Assembly: GCA_951406725.2 (NCBI GenBank)
Contig: OX597815.1
Location: forward strand, 104,594,001 to 104,658,000
DNA from: Octopus vulgaris
Taxonomy: Eukaryota
Reading direction: 5' to 3'
Length of the DNA stretch: 64,000 bases
Below the pieces are notes generated by a model. That model made no database searches and had not been told where the DNA came from. It saw only the letters and a program-made list of their open reading frames with translations. Below are positions 12,000 through 55,650 of the stretch, piece by piece. The translations under genes were made by a program, and so were the position numbers. Numbering within the stretch: position 1 is the first letter of the stretch; each line of letters starts with the position of its first letter.

Positions 12000-12960
12000 A
12001 ATTTTAAGAGTGTTTTATTAGATAAGGAAAAGCAATGGATCAATAATTCATTATGCTTATTAATTAGATTTACATTTGAGAGTTTCTAACACTGCTACTG
12101 AACAGAAATTAAAGCTACCCTTACCCATTTTGTATGGAAGCGCATACCTATAACCCATGAAAATGAGTAATTGATATTTTTCTCCTTAAAGTCCCAGATG
12201 AATTTAGCCAATGTGGTGTTCTATGCACGTTTTAAATATATACTTAAATGAGTGTATGTGATTATGCATCTAACTTTGATTTAGGATGCAGTTGCTCTTA
12301 TGTAATAATAGACTTTATACAACGTTTTAGCAGAGTATTTATACATTAAATTATACCTAATAAATAAATTATTTAATGGACATTTATCATGAATCCTACA
12401 GTTACACATACTATTGTGTTTGTTATCAGAGGAAACCTTATTAATTTTATTAATGCTATTGTTTTTAATGTGATGTGATACTGCAGTATTATTATCATAT
12501 TTATACTGGACAGAGACATTTGCCATTTGAATAATTAAAAGTACATTTGTTATTACTAATAGCATTTGAATCTTTTTACTGTAAATTGTTGTTATATTAT
12601 TTGTTAGATTAGATGTAGTCGAATGCATAAATTTCAAGGTATGTCTTTTGAATATATTACTATATCTACTAGAAGGGGAAAGTTGCTTACCCAATGCTCT
12701 AGAAATATTTCAAGGATATCCATGACTATATGAATAAACAATTTGATAAAGATATGTAATACCATTATCTTCATTCTTTTGTTTGTTTGTTGTTATACAT
12801 TGCACTGTATACACCAGCTGGTTACTTGATAAATTTCCTCAGATTGACAGTTTGTATAGGACAGTGGATTCAATGAATATGAATTCTGCTTCTCATTTTT
12901 ATACATTGTTAGCCAGGAGGTATCTATCCAGATTTCCTAAATCACTCCTTTCTCTCACTA
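12000..12960 (-). mobile_element. Penelope-like element GIY-YIG endonuclease relic
   Basis: IFKRHTLKFMHSTTSNL, CNCRIHDKCPL, YYYIRATAS, HNHIHSF, TTLAKFIWDFKEK and LINKHNELL follow the PLE linker/GIY-YIG motif order. Stops and frameshifts are present. Confidence 0.85.
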
Positions 12961-13792: not shown

Positions 13793-13845
13793 TCCTTACT
13801 GAAGAGGCTACGGAAATAGCTGAAACTGAACGTTCAGTCTAAGGA
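13793..13845 (+). ncRNA. Minimal type I hammerhead ribozyme
   Basis: TCCTTA-CTGAAGA-GGCTA(cggaaa)TAGCT-GAAA-CTGAACGTTCAG-TC-TAAGGA. Stem I is 6 bp, the core is intact, stem II is 5 bp closed by G-U, stem III is palindromic, and the GUC triplet is at 13837-13839. Confidence 0.88.
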
Positions 13846-15555: not shown

Positions 15556-16125
15556 TAGCAATTTAATATTGTTTATCAGTGGCTAAATACTGCTGATGAG
15601 TTATACATTACTTTTATTCAGTACCTGGCTAGATCTGCACAGCTTGTTTTATCTCAAGGCCATAATTACTACAAACTGACAAAAAGAACAGGATCATAAC
15701 ATATATCTCTCTTCTAAGATGTCAATTTTACTGATTGGCATCAAAAGTAAGTTGCACACTTACTGATAAACTAATTAAAAGATGTAGGTGAGAAGCTCAT
15801 TACTGATTCAGAAATATGTAGTCTTCGTATCTCCCCCAACCCATACCAAATTAGGTTATTGGAATCTAATGAGAAAGTACAAAAACATAGTCATGTTCTC
15901 ATTAATATAATTTCTCTTTGTCTTATATTGCTTTGTAAAGATAATTTCTAACATTACAAAAATCCGCATATTTTGGATTGGAAGAGGCAATATCAATGTT
16001 ATTTAATTCAACTAGGACCTATTTTATTAATTCCAAAGGAATGACAGGTGAAGTAAATGTGAGGGATAGATTAGAAATCAAACTATAAGAGACTAAATCT
16101 AAATAATAATAATAATTATAATAAT

Positions 16126-16257
16126 GAGCTCACCATGTCATGCACATATGGTTGTGATGCATGTGCCTAGTGTACCATTATCAGATGGGTAGTCATGATT
16201 GGGTTTTGTATATTTGTACCTGTGTCACTTTGATGGCATGCACTGCTCTCTCACTCA
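16126..16257 (+). mobile_element. 5'-truncated copy of the ~550-bp TAA-bounded element
   Basis: Ends gtcactttgatggcatgcactgctctctcactca-(ATA)n like the full copies. Confidence 0.9.
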
Positions 16258-16344
16258 ATAATAATAATAATAATATTAATAATAATAATAATGATAATAA
16301 TAATAATGATAATGATGAGGATGATGATGATGATAATGATAAGT

Positions 16345-16530
16345 GTTTCTAATTTAGGCACAAGGTTAGCAAATTTGATGGAAGGGTTAAGTTGACCTGA
16401 GTACTTGACTGATACTTTATTTTGTTGACCTTGAAATGATGTAAAGAAAAGATGACCTTTGAGAAATTTTGAACTCTGAACATAATCATAAGAAATACTG
16501 CAAGCTCTATTCTGGGGCTCTAAAAATTCA
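16345..16530 (-). mobile_element. Degraded tRNA-derived SINE
   Basis: ggcacaagg...agtacttgactgatactttatt...tttgaactctgaac matches the other SINE copies. Confidence 0.7.
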
Positions 16531-19089: not shown

Positions 19090-19860
<771 letters not shown>

Positions 19861-19889
19861 ATAATGATGATGATGATGATGATAATGAT

Positions 19890-20320
19890 GATTTCAAACA
19901 TTGGCACAAGGCCAGCAATTTCAGGAGTGGGGTGAGGGTAATTCGATTACATCGGTCTCAGTGTTCAACTGATACTTATTTTATCAACCCCGAAGGAATG
20001 AAAGGTAAAGTTGACCTAAACAGAATTTGAACTCAGAAAGAAAAGACAGATGAAATACCACTAAGCATTTCACCCGGTGTGCTAACAATTCTGCCAGCTT
20101 GAATGGTTTCAAATTTTGGCACAAGGCCAGCAATTTTGGGGAGTGAGGAAGTTGATAACATTGACCCCAGAACTCAACAGGAACTTTATTTTTATTGACC
20201 CTAAAAGGATGAAAGGCAAAGTCAATCATGGCAGAATTTGAACTCAGAATGTAAAGCTGGATAAAATGCTGCTGAGCATTTTGCTTGGCCTGCTAATGAT
20301 TCTGCCTGCTCACCCCCTTA
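19890..20320 (-). mobile_element. Two tandem tRNA-derived SINEs (octopus-type)
   Basis: Reverse complement of ctggcagaa..gttagca...ttctgagttcaaatt (B-box-like)...actttgcctttcatcctt..gggtc.ataaa core...gccttgtgcc. Confidence 0.9.
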
Positions 20321-20362
20321 GTAATAATAATAATAACAATAAAAATAACAATAATAATGATT

Positions 20363-20733
20363 TCATGTATTTGCCACAAGTGTGAAGGATGAGGGGGACA
20401 ATACAGAGACAGACAGAAAGTGTGGGGGTTTACATATAATGAAATGACAAAAAAAAGTAAGTATACATAGTATACATTGAAAAAGAAGGGACATACGCAT
20501 AATAAGCAAAGATAAAAAAAAATGATAAGGAGGATGATAGAGATGTGGCCCTCCTGATACAGGAAGATGTCTAGGGATAATCAAGGAACTCCACTATCCG
20601 AGATTTCCCTGGAACCCTAGGAGTAAGTGCCCTCTCCAATTCCTTCTCTCCGACTTACAAGTCTACACTTCAAGAACTACCATCCACTCTTGCCATTTTT
20701 GCAACTTTGACTCACCTTTCAATAAACTTGCAA
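20363..20733 (-). mobile_element. 3' end of a Tx1/L1-like LINE
   Basis: Minus strand CKFIER*VKVAKMARVDG is homologous to SKLVERWIRVVRIG at 60.2-60.3 kb, followed by a T-rich 3' UTR. Confidence 0.6.
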
Positions 20734-20754
20734 TAATAATAATGACAATAATAG

Positions 20755-20888
20755 TCCTTTCTATTATAGGAACAAGGCCTGAAATTTTGAGGGAGGAGGT
20801 TAGTTGATTACATTGACCCCAGTACTTGACTGGTACTTATTCTATCAATCTCGAGAGGATGAAAGGCAAAGCTGACCTGGGCAGAATA
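20755..20888 (-). mobile_element. Partial tRNA-derived SINE
   Basis: cctttctattatagg...aggatgaaaggcaaag. Confidence 0.85.
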
Positions 20889-20901
20889 ATAATAATAATA
20901 A

Positions 20902-21430
20902 CTCTGATGCAGTACCAGGTACTGGCTTTCATAGCTTCTCATCTTAGCTGATTGGAAATGTTATTGTGTACATTGTTTTGTCTTGGTATAAAAGACGGGC
21001 TACAGCTAATATTCTGCTCAATACCACAGATTTGCTTGTTAGTTGTTTAACCGTAACCAGTTGAGCATGTCACTTAGTGGCTGACAATATGTGCATCTCT
21101 GATCATGAGCAGATGTAGTGGGGGAGCACCATAGCCATGTGTTGAGGGTTTGGATAATTTACTTTTGGAAACATGGGTGTTTCATTCCACACCCTTAAAC
21201 AATCCTCATTCAGGGACCTTTTGAGCAAGGTGGGCAGAAAAAAGTTCTAACTGGACCCCACCTGTAAGGTCATGCACTGTTTATCTTGATATGAGGTCAC
21301 CATGTTGCGCAGATATGGTTGTGATACATGTGCCTGGTGTATCCTTATCAGACGGGTAGTCATGAGTATACTGGACTTTGAATATCTTACCCCAGTGTCA
21401 CTTTGATGGCATGCACTGCTCTCTCATTCA
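20902..21430 (+). mobile_element. Full-length ~550-bp non-autonomous element bounded by (TAA)n
   Basis: ctctgatgcagtaccagg...cactgctctctcattca; five homologous copies in the window. Confidence 0.92.
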
Positions 21431-21434
21431 ATAA

Positions 21435-22880
21435 TAATAGAAAGAACATGTATGATAATCAACATAGCATACCCTGGTGGCAACAGGATCAAAGAGAGAA
21501 GAAGAAAAAATAAACGGCCATGACAATTTGAAGTGGGTAATACAAAGGTTATGGTCAATGAGGAGAGTAGATGTGACACCAATAGTAATTGGTGCACTTG
21601 AAATTATCAGCTGACAACTACCAACATGACCATAAAAGATTGGTATGAGTGTAAGGTAGAACACTTACAAAAATCAGCATTGCTTGTAACAGCAAGAATT
21701 CTTTGTAGGGTTCTTGAATTCTTGGCAGAATTTAAACTCAGAAGCTAAAGATGGAAAAAATGCTACAAAGCATTTTGTCAGGCATATTAACAACCCCAGT
21801 GTTTAACTGGTACCTGTTTATATAAAAACAAAGCAAGTACCTGTTTATATAAAAACAAAGCAATGACAACAACAAACAAAATAATAATAAGTGACAATAA
21901 CAGAAATCTGGCAATAGTTAAACTCTAAACAAACATAAATTGGGTCTATGGAATGCCATAATAAAACGATAAGAAATGTCCTTACATGACCAATACTGGA
22001 AAAGGCTGAATAAAGTGGAAATAGAAAAAGAAAACCCCAGCACTAATCAAAAACAATGGGACATGAAGCAGTGACTGAAGAATTCTTCATTGTAGCAAAG
22101 AACCAAAGCCTTCCTGACAAAAATTACCAAGTTCATATTATAAAGCAAAATAAATTAAATAACAGCAGAATATGAAGAGATGATAAGAGGGTAAAAGGTA
22201 AAGACTCGCTTTGGTCATGAATGACCATGGGATTGCACCTAGAAAGTTCCCCTCCAAGGCACAAGTCTGGACAAGGCAGTTTATGGAAGACCAGTAGTTG
22301 CCCATGCATACCAGCCTCCCCTCTCTATACCACTGATGTTATCCACAGGAAAGGCAAATGCTGATACAGCTTAACACCAGTGATGTTGCAACTCATTTCT
22401 ACAACTGAGTGAACTGGAACAACATGAAATAAAGTGTCTTGGTCATGGACACAATGTATAGCCCAGTCCAGGAATCAAACTACTACCTCATGATTGTGAG
22501 CCCAATACTTTACACGCATCTTCAGGTGATGAAAAAACAAATAGCCACATAATTTCTGAAAGTCTCGGCCAGGAAAGAATACACCCACATGACAGAATTG
22601 GGATTTACATACAGAGGGAGTTATGTTAGTATTATGAAATACCATGAGAAAAGAGTTACTATAGCTATGCACCAAAAAAGGTCTTCAATAATGACAAAGC
22701 AACTATAGTCATATACCAATATCCACAGATTGGAAGATAAAAACTAATCAAATAGATATTGTTATCAAAGGCCACCAAGAAAAGAAATGTGACCTAATCC
22801 ATATATCAGTCCTAACTAGAGACAGAGAAAACTACCTTCAAGTAAAGATGTTAAAAAATAAAAATAACCAGAATGTGAAG
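21435..22880 (+). mobile_element. R4/Dong-like fragments interrupted by SINEs
   Basis: CMIINIAYPG...QKSALLVTARILCRVLE (21440-21720); EEFFIVAKNQSLPDKNYQVHIIK (~22075-22145); RLE remnants at 22600-22880. Confidence 0.7.
22192..22515 (-). mobile_element. tRNA-derived SINE, second family
   Basis: Minus strand has a tRNA-like head (gtttgattcctgg) followed by ttgtgtccatgaccaagacactttatttc. A homolog lies at 43205-43335(+). Confidence 0.8.
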
Positions 22881-25779: not shown

Positions 25780-26770
25780 TAACCCATAATGTTTTTGTGG
25801 ACAACCTCAAGATTTATACTAAAGACATTAACAATGTCAAAAAAACCAAAAAAACCCCAGCTGGAATTAATAACATTTTCAGCTGATACAGGACTGGAAT
25901 TTGACCAAAAGAAAAGTTCATATTTGATTATTTAATGTGGAAAATCAATCCCTCAGACCCAAAATTTGTGCATCAATGTCTCACTATCTCTCTTATCCCA
26001 CAAAAAGAATGCTACAAGTACCTAGGTATTGATGAAAACATACTATTTACTAAGAAAATATAGAGTGACCTGAGAATATCATGCCAAACTTAAGAAAAAT
26101 ATGGCATCCAGAACTCTCTTCTTACAACAAGACAATATTCCACAATGCATTTGCAGTACCAGAGCTGATTCCAACATTTGGGATACTTGATTGGTCTGTA
26201 CAGAAAATCCACTCCATAGATATTAAAACCTGCCAGATACTGACATAACTGGAAATCTCTACAGAAATAATGATATAGACAGGCTCTACTTAAGAAGAGA
26301 TGAAAGAGGTAGAAGCTTCAAATCAGTGCAGATAGCCATTGAATGTCATATAGTCTCTCTCAGAGAGCGTTTCCTAAACAACAACAACAGAAAAAATAAA
26401 TACATTAACTTATTGCTGAAAAGAGTAAAGAACAATATTCTATGTGTCAGCAGTGAGCTCCTCAGGAAGCATTATCTTCCTGATGACCTCCCATACAACC
26501 TCAAACAGCTGGACTAACATACTTCAAAGAAGACCTGAATGTGAAACACTCAGCATACCAAAAAGAAGACCTTGTGTGAGTATCTTTCCCAAAGATTTGA
26601 AGAAGACTGTAAAATTGACATGAAACAAAACCTCTCTCGGACTGGTGACTGCTACATCACACCACACTTCAAAAGCTAAGCATTTGCAATCCAAGAACAA
26701 GAGATTACTACTAAACGCATAATAAACAAAAGAGACAGTGAAGCTGTTGGAGTTCCAAGATGTAACCTAA
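25780..26770 (+). mobile_element. R4/Dong-like RT/thumb fragment (distinct subfamily)
   Basis: FVDNLKIY, YKYLGIDE, ELSSYNKTIFHNAFAVP, DIDRLYLRRDERGRS, FAIQEQEITTK; disrupted. Confidence 0.85.
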
Positions 26771-39080: not shown

Positions 39081-39091
39081 GGCAGGTATAC

Positions 39092-39164
<73 letters not shown>

Positions 39165-39166
<2 letters not shown>

Positions 39167-39648
39167 TGTTTTGTCTTGGTATAAAAGATGGGCTACAGCA
39201 AATATTCTGCTCAATACCACAGATTTGCTTGTCAGTTGTTTGGCCTTAACCAGTTGAGCATGTCCCTTAGTGGCTGACGATATGTGCATCTCTGATCACG
39301 AGCAGAAATAGTGGGGGAGCATCATGGCCATGTGTTGAGAGGGATTCTTTGGGGTTTGAATAACTCACCTCTGGAAACATAGGTGTTTCGTTCAACATCC
39401 TAAAGCAACCCTTATTCAGGGACCTTTTGAGCAGGATGGGCTACTCAACCTGAAGAAAATTCTAACTGGGCCCCACCTGCAAGGTCATGTGCTGTTTATC
39501 TTGATATGAGATCACCATGTCGTGCACATATGGTTGTGATGCATGTGCCTGGTGTACCTTTATCAGACGGGTAGTCATGATGGGTATATTGGGCTTCGTA
39601 TATTTTACCCCAGTGTCACTTTGATGGCATGAACTACTCTCTCACTCA
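39165..39648 (+). mobile_element. 5'-truncated ~550-bp TAA-bounded element
   Basis: Colinear with the 20902-21430 copy from about 20972 onward; (TAA)n on both sides. Confidence 0.92.
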
Positions 39649-39814
39649 ATAATAATAATAATAATAATAATAATGTATTTGTATTCATCATCTTAGTCCA
39701 TTTTGTTCTGGCAGCTATATAATGATGACCAGCTATATAATGATGTGTTGCTCACCTACAGAGCACCTGCTTTGTGAAAGTCCATCACCTGTAGTTCCAT
39801 CCTCATTTACACTG

Positions 39815-40046
39815 TTGATTTCAAATTTTGGCAAAAGGCCAGTAATTTTAGGGGTAGGAGAACAGTTGATTACAACAACTCCAGTACTCAACAGGTATTT
39901 ATTTTATCGATTCTAAAAGGATGAAAGGCAAAGCTGATCTTGGCAGAATTTGAGCTAAGATTGTAACAGATCGAGAGAAATGCTGCTGCTATTTATTTTT
40001 CCACTGTGCTTCTGATTCTGTCAGTTCACTGCCTTGATAGCTGTAT

Positions 40047-40085
<39 letters not shown>

Positions 40086-41365
40086 GAAATAATAATAATA
40101 ATAATAATAATAATAATCCTTTCTACTATAGGCACAATGCCTGAAATTTTGAGGGAGGTGAGATAGTCGATTATATTGACCCCAGTACTTGACTGGTACC
40201 TTTTACATCAACCCTGAAAGGATGAAAGGCAAAGTCGACCACAGCAGAATTTGAACTTAGAATGTGAAATCAGATGAAATACTGTTAAGCATTTCATCCA
40301 GTATGCTAACAGTTCTGCCAATAATAATAATAATAATAATAATCTTTTCTACTCTAGGCACAAAGCCCGAAATTTTGTGGGAAGGGAGCCAGTCAATTAG
40401 ATCGAGCTCAGTATGCAACTGGTACTTAATTAATCGACCCTGACAGGATGAAAGGCAAAGTCGACGTTAGCAGAATTTGAACACAGAATGTTAAGGCAGA
40501 TGAAATACTATTAAGCATTTCACCCAGCATGCTAACGTTTCTGCCAGCTCTAATGATTTCTAATAAGGACTTGACTGGTACCTTTTACATCAACCCTGAA
40601 AGGATGAAAGGCAAAGTCGACCACAGCAGAATTTGAACTTAGAATGTGAAATCAGATGAAATACTGTTAAGCATTTCATCCAGTATGCTAACAGTTCTGC
40701 CAATAATAATAATAATAATAATAATCTTTTCTACTCTAGGCACAAAGCCCGAAATTTTGTGGGAAGGGAGCCAGTCAATTAGATCGAGCTCAGTATGCAA
40801 CTGGTACTTAATTAATCGACCCTGACAGGATGAAAGGCAAAGTCGACGTTAGCAGAATTTGAACACAGAATGTTAAGGCAGATGAAATACTATTAAGCAT
40901 TTCACCCAGCATGCTAACGTTTCTGCCAGCTCTAATGATTTCTAATTTAGGCAGGTGCCAGCAATTTTGAAGGAAGTATATTAATTGATACTATCAATCT
41001 CTGTACATGATTGGTATTTTATTTTAACAACTATTAAGGATGAAAGGTAAAATTTTAAAGAGCTATATTTCAAATGATTCTGTCAATTACTACTCTAGAG
41101 TATAAATAATAAGGCAACTGATAGGGTTTTTTTTGTGTTTTTTTTTACTAAAACATGGGCCTTACATTTTGGGAGAAGAGTGTGTAGTCAATTCAGTTGA
41201 CACCAGTATTTGACTACTACTTATGTTATCAGCCTTGGTAAAATGACAAACTTAATGCATTTGAACACAGAAAGATAAGAGAACCAAGTAACAACTATAA
41301 TAATCATAATGAAATTTTCTTGAAAGGTGAAAAGCAAAGTTGGCCTTAGCAGAATTTGAAATCAA
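39815..41365 (-). mobile_element. Cluster of ~7 co-oriented tRNA-derived SINE copies
   Basis: Repeated ggatgaaaggcaaagtcgac...cagaatttgaac...ttctgcca modules separated by (AAT)n. Confidence 0.9.
40187..40946. repeat. Apparently exact 378-bp tandem duplication
   Basis: 40187-40564 equals 40569-40946 with spacer aagg; the internal (AAT)n has the same length in both. Confidence 0.93.
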
Positions 41366-41893: not shown

Positions 41894-41929
<36 letters not shown>

Positions 41930-41996
41930 CTATCTAAGAATCCATGAGTCAGGGAAAAATGCACTCATATATCTGCCAGTAGAGTGGGTATATTAA

Positions 41997-42237
41997 TTGA
42001 AGTGTACAGTATTATATTCATTATGGTCAATCTTACCAATCAATTTTGCATTAGGGGTTCAACAGAGTGTTAGGTAATAGCCTGATTATGTAACCTGCAT
42101 TCTTCAGAGATGGCAGTTCATCCCTGGAGAGTGCAGGGTTACATAATTGGACTGTCACCAAACACTCTGTTGAACCCTTAGTGTGAAACTGATTGGTAAG
42201 ATCGGCCAGAATGGATATATAACACAGTACATTTCAA
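41997..42237. mobile_element. ~240-bp palindromic element; each arm carries a degenerate type I hammerhead
   Basis: Arms 41997-42112 and 42119-42237 with loop gcagtt. Plus arm: ATCC-CTGGAGA-GTGCAGGGTT..AACCCTTAGTGT-GAAA-CTGATTGG-TA-AGAT. Minus arm: ATCT-CTGAAGA-ATGC...ATGC-AAAA-TTGATTGG-TA-AGAT. Confidence 0.8.
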
Positions 42238-42549
42238 CAAATATATATATGTATATATGTGCAAGACAATGGAATTTGTTGTTGTTTCAGCTTATGATTA
42301 AACCTATGATTAAAGGTATTACAGTCATAACTATCCCATCTTCTTTTCATGCATAGTGTATTGTCGACTACACTTTCAAATAGGCATACATTTTAGCAAT
42401 GACAGTGTCTAATTTGAGGGAGATTTATTGTTCATTGTAGCTGGTTGAATTACCACATAGATGCTTCTTATTTGGTTGTAATCAAACAGAAGATAAATCC
42501 AAGTACACAGAAGGCACTTGTAGTACAATTGTAAGTATAATATAAAACA

Positions 42550-48078: not shown

Positions 48079-48119
<41 letters not shown>

Positions 48120-48129
48120 TATTATTATT

Positions 48130-48445
48130 GCTTAAAATTTTGGCAAAGAGCCAGTAATTATGAGGGAGAGGGCAAATCAATTACATTGAGCCCAGTGTTT
48201 CACTGGTACCTTTTTTTATTGACTCCAAAAAGATGAAAAGCAAAGTTTACCTCAGCAGAATTTGAACTCACAATATAAAGATGGATGGATTGCCCCTAAG
48301 AATTTCGTCCATCTTTTCATTCTGATTTCAAATTCCACACAGGTTGACTTTGCCATTCAGGTTCGATAAATTGAGTACCAGTGAGACACTGGGGTCGATG
48401 TAATCGATTAGAACCTCCCTCAAAAAATTTAGTTGAAAGGATTAT
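48130..48445. mobile_element. Two divergently oriented SINE copies
   Basis: Minus copy ~48130-48310; plus copy ~48315-48445 ending gaaagg-(att)n. Confidence 0.8.
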
Positions 48446-48460
48446 TATTGTTATTATTAT

Positions 48461-48999
48461 TCAATGAGAGAGCAGTGCATGCCATCAAAGTGACTTGGGG
48501 TACAAATATACAGAGCCCAGTATACTCATCATCACTATCTGTCTGATAATGGGTACACCAGGTACATGTATCACAACCATATGTATAAAACATGATAATC
48601 TCACATCAAGATAAACAATGCATGACCTTTCAGGTGGTGCCTAGTTAGAATTTTCTTCAGGTTGAGTAGACCATCCCACTCAAAAGGTCCCTGAATAAAG
48701 ATTGTTTAAGGATGTTGAATAAAACATGCATGTTTCCAGGGATGAATTATTCAAACACCAAACAGTTCCTGTCAGCACATGGCTATGATGTTCCCCCACT
48801 GCTTCTGCTCATGATCAGACATGCACATGTTGTCAGTCACTAAGGGACATGCTCAACTGGTTACGGTCAAACAACTGGCAAGTAAATCTGTGGTACTAAG
48901 CAAAGTGTTTGCTATAGCCCATCATTTATACCAAGACAAAACATGTACATGATAACACTTCCAATCAGTTAAGATCAGAAGCTATGAGAGCCAGTACTG
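48461..48999 (-). mobile_element. ~550-bp TAA-bounded element
   Basis: Reverse-complement homolog of 20902-21430. Confidence 0.92.
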
Positions 49000-49005
49000 T
49001 TATTA

Positions 49006-49063
<58 letters not shown>

Positions 49064-49107
49064 TATTTAGTGAGAGAGCAGTGATGGCAGGCACTGCTCT
49101 CGCACTC

Positions 49108-49179
<72 letters not shown>

Positions 49180-51175
49180 CTGGAAAAAATGGAGTCCTGC
49201 CACATGAGCAGAAGGGTTGCAAGTGTAAGTGCAGAGGTACCAAAGATCAACTCCTAGTAGACAAAATTGTACTTAGAGACTGCAAGAAGAGGAAAACTAA
49301 CTTAGCTATGTCATGGATTGATTATCATAAGGTGTACGATATGATCCAACATTCTTGGATTATGGAATGTATGAATCTATGGAATGTATGAACGCATTGA
49401 ATGTTGAGTGATTGCTTGGAAAAACTATGGTGAAGTGGAAGGCGGAACTGACAGCATATGGTAGAAGTTTAGGTATAATAGAAATCAGGAGAGGCATCTT
49501 ACAAGGGGACTGCCTGTCCCCACTGATCTTTGTACTGTGCATGATACAACTAACACTGATTCTGAGAAAAGTAAAGGCTGAGTATGTATTCAAAAGCCGC
49601 CAACAAAAAGTCAACCACGTGTTATTCATGGATGACCTCAAACTTTATGGTAAAGATGAATCCCAAGTCAGTTCCCTCGTTGATATGATGTATACTTTCA
49701 GTGTTGATATCAGAATGGAGCTTGGACTGAAAAAGTATTGTGTGTTAGTCTTCAAGAGATGCAAAATCAAATGTAATGATGGGCTAGTGATACTGTCAGG
49801 GGAGGTTATGAAGTAGAGAGAAAAAATAGGCTATAAGTACTTGGGGATATTGGAAATGGATAAATTGATGGAGAAAGAAATGACAGAAGTATTTGAGGTG
49901 GATTACTTGCACAAACTGAGACTGATCCTTATGTCGAAATTAAATGAATGGAATAAGATTAAAGCTATCAACACCTGGGTGGTTTCACTCCTTAGATAGG
50001 GGGCAGGGGTAATCGCATGGATAATAGACGAACTAAACAGCTTAGACAGAAAGACAAGGAAGTTGCTAACTAGACATGGGATACTTCACCCCCAAAAGTG
50101 ACACAGACAGACAGTATGTAGCAAGAAAAAGAGAGGGAAGAGGACTGATTGGATGCAAACACAGCATTAGAGCAGAAGAAAAGAACATAGCATGGTATGT
50201 AAAAAATGCCACAGAACCACTATTATTGGAAGTAAAAAGGTCAGGCTTGTGTAGGATGGAAGATTGCAAAGATAAAGCACTGTACAAGCACTTGAGAATG
50301 AATGAAACTGAAAATAGGTGGATAAAGAAAATAATGCATGGACAATTTCATAGGGATATTGAAGATAAGATAGACAGAGAAAAAAGATGGTTATGGATGA
50401 CTAAAATTGATTTAAAACCGAAAACAGAGGCTCTAATCTGTGCTGCCCAAGAGCAAGCACTAAGAATGAATTACATCAAATATAGAATAGACAACACATC
50501 AGAAGGTGATAAGTGCAGAATTTGTGGACAAAATGGTGAAACCATATGACATATTACCAGTCAATGTACACTACTAGCCCAGGAAGAATATAAGAGATGT
50601 CATGACAATATAGCAAGGATTGTCTGTTGTACACTTTGCAACAAGTATGGACTTGACAGAGCACAAAGTGGTACAAACAGAAACCCGGAGGCATCATCAA
50701 AAATGATAATGCAGAGATCCTATCAGATTTTATGATTCAGTGCAACCATGAGATAGGGAATAGGAAGCCAGACATAGTGTTAATTGAGAAAGAAAGCAAA
50801 CGATGCTGCATCATAGATATAGTATGCCCAGCTGAAAACAAGGTATGTGATGAAAGAAATGTCAATAAATATGACGATAAATATGTCAATAAATATGTCA
50901 ATGAATATGACATGTTAACTTGGGAGGTTAAGCAATTGTGGTCAATGAAAAAGGTGGTAGTAGTACCAATAATTGTTGGCAACAGTGAGTAAAAATCTTG
51001 AAAAGTACATAGAACATATAAGGGCTGGAATAAGGGTGAAGCACTTGCAGAAAACAACACTGCTTGGAACCGCTTGAATACTCTGGCTGGTGCTCGGAAA
51101 ATAAGGAGTGACCTTAGTTCACTGGTAGTGAACAGCTGGCACCATAGCACATCTCCAGTGATAGAAGCTGGATAA
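49180..51175 (+). mobile_element. 5'-truncated R4/Dong-like RLE non-LTR retrotransposon (RT, CCHC, restriction-like endonuclease), inactivated
   Basis: EQKGC...[54 protein letters not shown]...HITSQC, RCHDNI, KPDIVL..IIDI. Stops and frameshifts present; (TAA)n at both ends. Confidence 0.95.
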
Positions 51176-51184
51176 ATGATAATG

Positions 51185-51237
<53 letters not shown>

Positions 51238-51257
51238 CATAATAATAATAATAATAC

Positions 51258-51810
51258 TTGAGTAAGAGAGCAGTGCATGCCATCAAAGTGACACTTGGGT
51301 AAAGTATAAGATGCCCAGTATACTCATCATGACTACCTGTCTGATAATGGTACACCAGGTACATGCATCACAACCATATGTGCATGACATGGTGATCTCA
51401 TATCAAGATAAACAGCTTATGACCTTGCAGGTGGGGCCCAGTTAGAATTTTCTTCAGGTTGAGTATACCATCCCACTTGAAAGGTCCCTGAATAAGAGTT
51501 GTTTAAGGATGCTGAACAAAACACCCATGTTTCCAAAAGTGAATTATCAAAACTCCAAACAATTCCTTTCAACACATGGCTATGATGCACCCCACTACCT
51601 CTGTTCATAATTGGAGATGCACATATCGTCAGCCACTAAGGAACGTGCTCAACTGGTTAAGGTCAAACAACTGACAAGCAAATCTGTGGTATTGAGCAAA
51701 ATTTTGCTGTAGCTCATCTTTTATACCAAGACAAAACAATGTACACGATAACACTTCCAATCAGTTAAGATCAGAAGCCATGAGAGCCACTGCCTGGTAC
51801 TGCATCAGGG
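51258..51810 (-). mobile_element. Full-length ~550-bp TAA-bounded element
   Basis: Minus strand starts ccctgatgcagtaccaggcagtggctctcatggc and ends cactgctctcttactcaa. Confidence 0.92.
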
Positions 51811-51811
51811 C

Positions 51812-51869
<58 letters not shown>

Positions 51870-53135
51870 TAGGCAGTGAGTTAGCAGAATCCTTAGCAAG
51901 CCGGGGAAAATGATTAGTGGTATTTTGTCTGTCTTTATGTTCTGAGTTAAAATTTCCCCAAGGTTGAATTTGCCTTTCATTTTCAGGTTGGTAAATAAGT
52001 ACCTGTCAAAAACCAGGCTCAAATTTCAGGCTTTGTGCCTATAGTGGAAAGGATTATAATTATTATCATTGATGTTAAATCAGAAGCAATTATTTTGCTG
52101 TTATTATTATTGTAGAGAAGCAGAATAACTAGAGAGTCAGAAAAAATGTCTTGTAGCTTTGTTCTTCTGGATCATTATGTTTTGAGTTGAAATCCAACTG
52201 AGGTTAACTTTGCCCTTCATAGTCAAATAGCCTTGAAATCTTTCTCAGTGTGTATTGGCATACCATAAAGCATAGTAGTTTTGTTGTTCTTGAAGACCTT
52301 TTCTGGTGTATGCTTTTACCATAATTTTCAGTCGGTAATTCTGTCTTGAATCCTTTTAGGACTGTAGCAGGATGTGTAGCAAAAGATGTTGTTGAGGTAG
52401 CAGATGAAATAGGCATGTGGATGACATCAAAGTAAAACAATGGGAAAGTATCAGATTGTGGTTTAAATAATTTATTTAATCAACACTTGCATTTATGTGT
52501 TGTATGCACAAGGAAATCCGTTACATGACATTACCATCTTGCTTTGAGTTGACGAAGTAAAAAATAAACAGGAGAAATACTGTGTTGATGTGACGAGGTA
52601 GAACTGGGCATGTTTTGTGTCTGTGTATGCTTTGGTCATTCAGTCGTGTCTGTTTATGTTCTGCAACTGCTGGCAGAATCATTAGCTCACTGGACAAAAA
52701 TGCATAGTGATATTTCTTCCAGCTTTATATTCTGAATTCAAATTCTGCCAAACTCAGCTCTGTCGTTCATACTTTCAGGGTCGATAAAATAAGTACCAGT
52801 TGAATGCTGGGGTCAAGGTAATTGACTTATCCCCTCTCACAGAATTGCTGGCCTTCTGCCAAAATTTGAAATCATTATTATTATTTTGGTGCCCCAGCAT
52901 GGCTGTGGCCTTCGGGCTAAAATATTTTAAGGATTTAAGGAGTTAAAGCAGTGAGTTGGCAGAGTCATTAGCCCTCTGGACAAAAATGCATTGTGACATT
53001 TCTTCCAGATTTATATTCAAATTCAAATTCCATTGAGGTCAACTTTGCCTGTTTTTTACCTTTCAGGATTGAGGAAATAAGCACCAAATGAGCACTGGGG
53101 TTGATGTAATAGATTAGACCTTACTACCAAAAATA
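51870..53135 (+). mobile_element. Cluster of plus-strand tRNA-derived SINEs with a small minus-strand Dong fragment
   Basis: SINEs at ~51870-52060, 52115-52220, 52665-52875 and 52945-53135; HTPEKVFKNNKTTMLYGMPIHTEKDFKA at ~52225-52330(-). Confidence 0.8.
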
Positions 53136-55439: not shown

Positions 55440-55650
55440 ACGAGCTGGCAGAAACGTTAGCATCCTGGATGAAATGCTAAGTGGTATTTCATCTGTCTTT
55501 ACATTCTGAGTTCAAATTCCACTGAGGTCAACTTTGCCTTTCTCCTTTCAGGGTCAATAAATTGGATACCAGTTGTGTACTGGGGTTGATCTAATCGACT
55601 GGCCCCCTCCTCCAAAATTTTGGGTCTTGTGCCTAGAGTAGATAAGAATA
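55440..55650 (+). mobile_element. Well-preserved tRNA-derived SINE
   Basis: cgagctggcagaaacgttagc...ttctgagttcaaattcc...actttgcctttc..ctttcagggtcaataaa...cttgtgcctagagtaga. Confidence 0.92.

Follow-up and report, generated by a model that had tools for sequence, protein, structure and literature searches.

A decayed head-to-head pair of hammerhead repeat ends in Octopus vulgaris, likely left by a Penelope-like retroelement

Insertions of Penelope-like retroelements (PLEs) are described, in the sections of PMC8557442 on which we draw, as carrying an inverted, 5'-truncated copy and a tail of 30-40 bp that is often one-sided, and as showing a bias for microsatellites that hides target duplications. 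The Hydra-clade rows tabulated in that source combine a preference for (TA)n with a CTGAnGAG hammerhead core, a motif located near the 3' end and a helix III of approximately 10 nt that is palindromic or near-palindromic, and one PLE, Penelope-13_HM, is given there as having an inverted copy and one hammerhead per strand. The relevant passages of PMC3846280 name the head-to-head arrangement as the most frequent inverted form and propose self-priming. Cleavage at AT-rich DNA and two start sites for reverse transcription (RT), which would explain the tail, are reported in the cited part of PMC11167929, where hammerhead cleavage proved dispensable for insertion in vitro.

Two further types of hammerhead-bearing sequence are relevant for comparison. 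Dual minimal hammerheads on opposite strands, 100-700 bp apart and tied to truncated PLEs, occur in Schistosoma mansoni, with cleavage that is low and dimer-dependent according to the sections of PMC4209133 used here. Retrozymes, as presented in the excerpted parts of PMC7229834 and 10.64898/2026.07.22.740005, are head-to-tail tandem arrays.

The DNA analysed in the current study, hereafter the window, is a stretch of 64 kb from the genome of Octopus vulgaris that is AT-rich and microsatellite-rich, with an observed/expected CpG ratio of 0.2. Self-comparison of the window revealed an inverted repeat at 41989-42245 (77.7% over 260 columns, E 1.8e-52), the predicted fold of which has a minimum free energy of -147.3 kcal/mol (z -19.7) that was equalled by 0 of 200 shuffled sequences. 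A preliminary description had reported an imperfect palindrome of approximately 240 bp between TA tracts, with both arms reading outward as type I hammerheads. The palindrome is real and the two outward layouts were confirmed on the strands and at the positions originally given, but the insertion as a whole is longer (approximately 315 bp) and asymmetric, with a tail of some 60 nt on the left only (Table 1). We consider it likely, at a probability of roughly 0.8, that the locus consists of two decayed, 5'-truncated copies of a hammerhead-bearing repeat end placed head to head in (TA)n, and that these stem from one integration by a PLE, probably of the Hydra clade.

Table 1. Features of the insertion and its immediate borders, in positions of the window.
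Feature	Positions	Strand	Details
Whole insertion, read as two 5'-truncated copies of one element 3' end, head to head	~41929-42243 (~315 bp)		Ends approximate
(TA)14 tract by the long 3' end	41901-41928		Likely target site
3' extension ('tail') of ~60 nt, left arm only	41929-41988	-	Seen in contig family depth and loose ends
Left arm, ~190 nt, outward reading	41929-42118	-	Begins 11 nt upstream of the core
Decayed type I hammerhead, left	42030-42111	-	Core CTGAAGA 42107-42101; CAAAA (G12>A) 42048-42044; predicted cut after 42034; helix II region 53 nt
Head-to-head junction	42118/42119		Both arms truncated within the 5' strand of helix I
Right arm, 125 nt, outward reading	42119-42243	+	Begins 5 nt upstream of the core; stops at the short 3' end
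Decayed type I hammerhead, right	42120-42202	+	CTGGAGA 42124-42130 (A6>G); GAAA 42185-42188; helix II 42131-42184 (54 nt); quasi-palindromic helix III 42188-42197; predicted cut after 42198
Interrupted (TA)n tract by the short 3' end	42241-42258

Copies of the repeat beyond this locus were gathered by mapping contigs from four of 24 public runs (X2, X4 and X9, which are large, and X11, which is small) on 41931-42380 at 80% likeness or more, which yielded 851, 1171, 643 and 38 mapped contigs in the four runs. X11, possibly an RNA run that may also contain DNA, was not counted as evidence of transcription. The arm repeat is a dispersed family. In the three large runs, the family depth summed over the arms and tail is 126-509 times the depth of the unique flank, a measure that is not a copy number and that we read only as 'hundreds'. 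No further copy of the fold-back repeat was found within the 64-kb window, and searches of viral contigs and prokaryote genomes each returned 0 matches. One metagenome match was rejected as a true copy, being a chance match of 22 of 24 positions within a reading frame of CpG-rich DNA.

These contigs also define the extent of the insertion. High family depth over 41946-41990 lies to the left of the palindrome and reaches toward the (TA)14 tract, and the loose contig ends at 41955 (32, 34 and 18 contigs) match the window to approximately 41926-41930; the left end is approximate, since contig mapping began at 41931. The tail has no mirror image on the right side, where the loose ends at 42222 (22, 22 and 13 contigs) pass the short end and enter TA/TG repeats in X4 and X9 and the tail in X2. 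Thus the family has two 3' ends approximately 60 nt apart, located 45 and 104 nt from the hammerhead cut site, and at this locus the left arm carries the long end and the right arm the short one. No target-site duplication could be distinguished from the microsatellite, the longest shared string being 10 nt of AT repeat. A separate, lower-copy repeat with a contig depth of approximately 20-50 times the unique flank is present at 42291-42350, just to the right of the insertion.

The head-to-head junction itself is not an assembly artefact, since a contig of run X4 (record 19) covers 42066-42190 with 0 differences at a single-copy depth of 45.6. The eight 'spacer' bases at 42112-42118/9 are mostly left-arm sequence, and a loose end at 42095 in X4 (23 contigs) tracks the window to 42118 before it diverges. 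A dip in central depth (7-43 times the flank) was rejected as a count of fold-backs, given that alignments clip at a 1-nt deletion at 42095.

Both arms have decayed. Among 122 aligned bases 99 are identical, the remainder comprising 17 transitions and 6 transversions, and the corrected distance between the arms is 0.22, or approximately 0.11 per arm. If the octopus calibration in the cited part of PMC13282606 applies, in which a distance of 0.09 corresponds to approximately 25 million years, the insertion would be tens of millions of years old. The preliminary description had assigned one core break to each arm, and those breaks (CTGGAGA on the right and AAAA on the left) are present, but each arm carries several lesions. 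In the right arm, A6 is mutated to G, helix I opens with a C-A mismatch, and most of the helix I 5' strand is missing. In the left arm, G12 is mutated to A, pair 10.1-11.1 is A-C, helix II contains another C-A mismatch, and one nucleotide has been deleted. An intact hammerhead core is accordingly absent from both arms as written, with GAAA intact in the right arm (where it reads TGAAA) and the TA cleavage dinucleotide retained in both.

Neither arm alone is above chance as a hammerhead. A descriptor allowing at most one core mismatch found five sites in the window, versus a mean of 1.9 in 20 shuffles, and missed the left arm, and a looser descriptor found the left arm and missed the right. A search of 41931-42245 against Rfam gave 0 matches up to E 10, which says little because the intact hammerhead at 13795 in the same window reached only 18.4 bits where the gathering score is 56.3. 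Folding of single arms (z 0.01 to 1.73) produced no hammerhead fold, a weak result in that the same programs failed to recover helices I and III of the 13795 hammerhead, which is intact. The hammerhead assignment therefore depends on the family data.

At the level of the family, the core is largely restored. Position 42127 is changed from G to A in 95, 99, 99 and 100% of depth in the four runs, which recovers CTGA with T or A at N7, and C15.2 is recovered in 81-92% of depth in X2, X4 and X9 and in 43% in X11, with G10.1 present in a loose-end consensus of 23 contigs from X4. The check proposed at the outset, for an intact CTGAAGA/CGAAA core in a consensus, succeeds for CTGA. The C11.1-G12 dinucleotide is a decayed CpG, with C in 39-47% of depth on the right arm and G12 in 26-48% on the left arm, where mapping is biased; the column frequencies listed include no row for 42185.

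Three helices can be examined in the same way. Helix I in other copies gives the strongest independent support for a hammerhead: when their upstream flank is set against the sequence beyond the cut site, 14 of 16 opposed bases pair, with a single bulge (aligned by hand; binomial 1e-5 at p 0.33 with the bulge left out of account). This flank is mostly absent from the fold-back locus itself. Majority alleles repair mismatches of helix II at 42156 (C>T, 96-98%), 42051 (T>C, 64-80%) and 42078 (T>C, 80-84%). For helix III, two C bases had originally been proposed as lost through CpG decay. Support for the first comes from 42042, where A>G makes up 51-53% of depth in X2, X4 and X9. The second lacks such support, as most of the family reads GATTGG (consensuses of loose ends from 44, 58 and 28 contigs) and all five A>G places in X4 and X9 are accounted for, 42038 not among them. 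This majority helix III would dimerise through G-U pairs. As computed, the 10-mer of the right arm self-pairs over 10 nt at -6.6 kcal/mol and that of the left arm at -1.8.

Such evidence reflects conservation of pairing, which is distinct from covariation. Pair 42149-42168, which is A-T in the left arm, has changed on both sides, but was rejected as covariation because both changes are CpG decay. Judged from sequence, the CTGA core and helices I, II and III indicate that a putative type I hammerhead holds at the family level.

We then consider whether the locus could act as a folding switch, as had been suggested on the grounds that hairpin and ribozyme folds would compete in a transcript of either strand. 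The predicted fold-back pairs have a mean probability of 0.91 on the plus strand (72 of 82 above 0.9) and 0.85 on the minus strand (67 of 82 above 0.9), versus 0.0 for the hammerhead helices on either full strand and at most 0.03 even in isolated arms. The head-to-head layout also places the antisense arm first in a read-through transcript of either strand. Because the antisense arm is made first, the fold-back dominates and both cores are mutated, no competition of folds and no ribozyme/hairpin switch is expected, and both ribozymes at the locus are predicted to be dead.

A central question is whether the fold-back moves as a unit. Nine of the 15 joints listed, from a total of 49, skip on the same strand from the left arm to the right arm, which is the signature of another head-to-head copy, and a further table adds five. 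Among those listed, left ends range from 41952 to 42090 and right starts from 42124 to 42199. Five of the nine recur in two runs, and those in X2 have depths of 47-80 versus 61, which is near single-copy; only four of the nine have 30 nt or more on the short side. Overall, there are at least 13 head-to-head junctions other than 42118/42119, and some inverted pieces measure only 20-80 nt against a longer partner. Six opposite-strand joints among the same 15 were set aside as single-arm copies split over homologous arms around an indel near 42017.

The reading that the fold-back is a miniature non-autonomous element, as proposed in the preliminary description, and that its two-ribozyme unit was amplified by PLE proteins in trans fits poorly with these data. 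Head-to-head joints do recur in the family, and the truncation points of the two arms at this locus lie only 6 nt apart. Young perfect palindromes may collapse in assembly graphs and contigs, where they are possibly under-represented. Furthermore, pLTR sequences alone can be mobilised in trans, according to the cited portion of PMC3846280. However, junctions vary among copies, the two ends are unequal, and, in each large run, groups of 16-25 contigs proceed from 42124 or 42129 into shared upstream sequence and not into an inverted arm. Under a 31-nt rule, the centre is bridged by one piece among the 32 listed of 2891, and this piece is the locus itself with 0 differences; one X9 piece, which has 21 differences and extends 25 nt across the centre, is ambiguous. 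We therefore consider amplification as a unit unlikely, and the variable junctions and the upstream continuation of other copies indicate that the fold-back is likely re-made at each insertion.

Less probable still is that the locus derives from a DNA transposon of the fold-back or MITE type that inserted at TA, had long terminal inverted repeats, lost variable parts of its interior and bears an incidental or captured likeness to a hammerhead. Internally deleted DNA transposons also yield variable junctions and depth enriched at the ends, and the long inverted arms and TA flanks are likewise compatible with such an origin. Opposed to this are the two alternative outer ends some 60 nt apart, at either of which copies stop, the very short inverted pieces noted above, and the retention at the family level of the core, of helix I pairing and of a near-palindromic helix III. 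A MITE or fold-back transposon would also be expected to have a uniform structure and terminal inverted repeats that are fixed and equal, whereas the ends here are unequal and the junctions vary.

We find it very improbable that a solo truncated copy came first and was later duplicated in inverted form by template switching during DNA repair or replication, apart from retrotransposition. The unequal arms, the blunt junction and the position within unstable microsatellite DNA would suit this history, but the inverted segment ends at the short 3' end of the family like other copies, no flank was copied, and the same geometry is repeated at the other junctions. Equally improbable is that the family is a non-LTR retrozyme (a short tandem hammerhead repeat with a circular RNA) and the locus an aberrant inverted insertion, for despite a type I hammerhead with a dimer-type helix III and the proposal that retrozymes are PLE derivatives (10.64898/2026.07.22.740005; PMC7229834, in the parts cited), the listed loose ends at 3' termini enter TA, TG or CA microsatellites and not a next unit, none of the 15 joints listed of 49 goes back, and the 64-kb window holds no tandem copy.

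An inverted 5'-truncated copy, a variable junction, a one-sided tail, a hammerhead near the 3' end and a microsatellite target together point to PLE membership on structural grounds, and the earlier suggestion of inverted Penelope-type terminal sequence agrees with this anatomy and with the intact family CTGA. Compared with insertions of endonuclease-bearing PLEs, as far as these are described in the cited parts of PMC8557442 and PMC3846280, the locus shares the head-to-head arrangement, the 5' truncation of both copies, the one-sided tail, the hammerhead near the 3' end and a microsatellite target without a readable duplication. It differs in its extreme truncation, which leaves no coding sequence, and in its tail of approximately 60 nt versus 30-40 nt. 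The length of the tail and the 54-nt helix II are points against the fit to the published PLE pattern, and the 30 nt available from each loose end linked the family to no parent reading frame with RT or GIY-YIG coding sequence.

Assignment to the Hydra clade is probable by motif likeness only. The family resembles the Hydra-clade hammerheads of Penelope-1_SK, Hydra-1_aMil and Penelope-13_HM (PMC8557442 File S2, in the part compared) in CTGAnGAG, (C/T)GAA, a helix III of approximately 10 nt that is palindromic or nearly so, and (TA)n. In contrast, its helix II region of 54 nt contains an inner hairpin, versus roughly 10-25 nt in the rows of PMC8557442 consulted, and far exceeds the spacer of 7-17 nt in the descriptors published there. 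The sequence of Hydra-1_Obim differs from that of the fold-back family, and the published Octopus Naiad and Hydra consensus ends in the supplement of PMC8557442 gave no match among the ends compared. Exact 9-12 nt motifs of the family are likewise absent from the searched text of that supplement, in which line breaks could hide a match, and a narrow literature search together with this supplement did not find the family in print.

The dual hammerheads of S. mansoni (PMC4209133, sections cited) similarly comprise two hammerheads on opposite strands associated with truncated PLEs; the octopus locus differs in having a longer helix III and in that its motifs meet with their 5' sides. Non-LTR retrozymes, in the portions of PMC7229834 and 10.64898/2026.07.22.740005 considered, are also non-coding and PLE-related with a type I hammerhead, but are arranged head to tail in tandem, whereas the copies described here are head to head with ends in microsatellites.

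Other sequences in the window are also of interest. A second type I hammerhead, unrelated in sequence to the fold-back, is located on the plus strand at 13795-13843, approximately 50 nt before a (CA)n/(TA)n tract, and has a full core, a helix I of 4 bp and a helix III that is a perfect palindrome of 14 nt. Among the descriptor matches in the window it alone is free of mismatches (0.15 per shuffle). Its Rfam score is weak, as given above, and it probably represents the solo, truncated end of a PLE from another family and would make a better candidate for assay. A decayed reading frame on the minus strand at approximately 12020-12709 resembles by eye the C-terminal part of Hydra/Penelope-clade proteins (CNCR...CPL and LAKFIWDFK motifs). 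Searches of Pfam, PDB and ESM Atlas with the PLE-like fragment at 12284-12709 gave no informative match, and the frame shows no DNA likeness to the fold-back. As it points away from the 13795 hammerhead, the two might belong to one old head-to-head insertion.

Decayed reverse transcriptase sequence in several frames lies on the plus strand at 49412-50992 (RVT_1, E 5.8e-10), with a shorter piece at 26227-26517; it resembles an R4/Dong-type LINE. Dispersed copies of one or two repeat families of 200-600 nt, in both orientations, occupy 16124-16500, 19860-21460, 39090-40950, 48100-49170, 51200-53110 and 55440-55650, and include a near-perfect tandem duplication of 381 nt (99.7%) at 40184-40946. 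Within 136-521, a tRNA-like sequence at 365-436 (37.3 bits in Rfam, not called by ARAGORN) has a 78% copy at 136-254, and these are likely SINE heads. A 1.3-kb region at 9065-10353 matches itself in inverted orientation at 74%, a match that is partly low-complexity in this microsatellite-rich sequence.

The presumed PLE insertion at 41929-42243 may have formed along lines suggested by published PLE biology. A GIY-YIG endonuclease would nick AT-rich DNA, and RT would copy the element RNA from near its 3' end and stop early. A second, short inverted copy could then arise from another start site or by self-priming, leaving a tail on one side only. Later drift would have changed each arm by approximately 10%, with transitions making up much of the change. 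The hammerhead of the parent element is predicted to cleave as a dimer via its near-palindromic helix III, and read-through RNA of the present locus would form a hairpin of approximately 125 bp. The parent template may have been an autonomous element or a non-autonomous derivative.

A more far-reaching proposal, which we regard as doubtful, is that the family constitutes an undescribed short non-autonomous PLE derivative whose 54-nt helix II is missed by standard descriptors, and whose frequent head-to-head insertion seeds the genome with hairpins in which the antisense arm comes first and the ribozyme is shut off. Small-RNA silencing or A-to-I editing of the same family could in turn draw on these hairpins.

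The fold-back locus is likely an ordinary dead insertion of a PLE and not a new mobile element, and as the fossil of an insertion pattern that has already been published it is of minor importance in itself. The family to which it belongs is of modest use, as its several hundred copies, two 3' ends and variable inverted junctions offer a dataset for the unsettled mechanism by which PLEs generate head-to-head copies and tails. The long helix II of the family further suggests that PLE ribozymes are undercounted when hammerhead descriptors assume short spacers.
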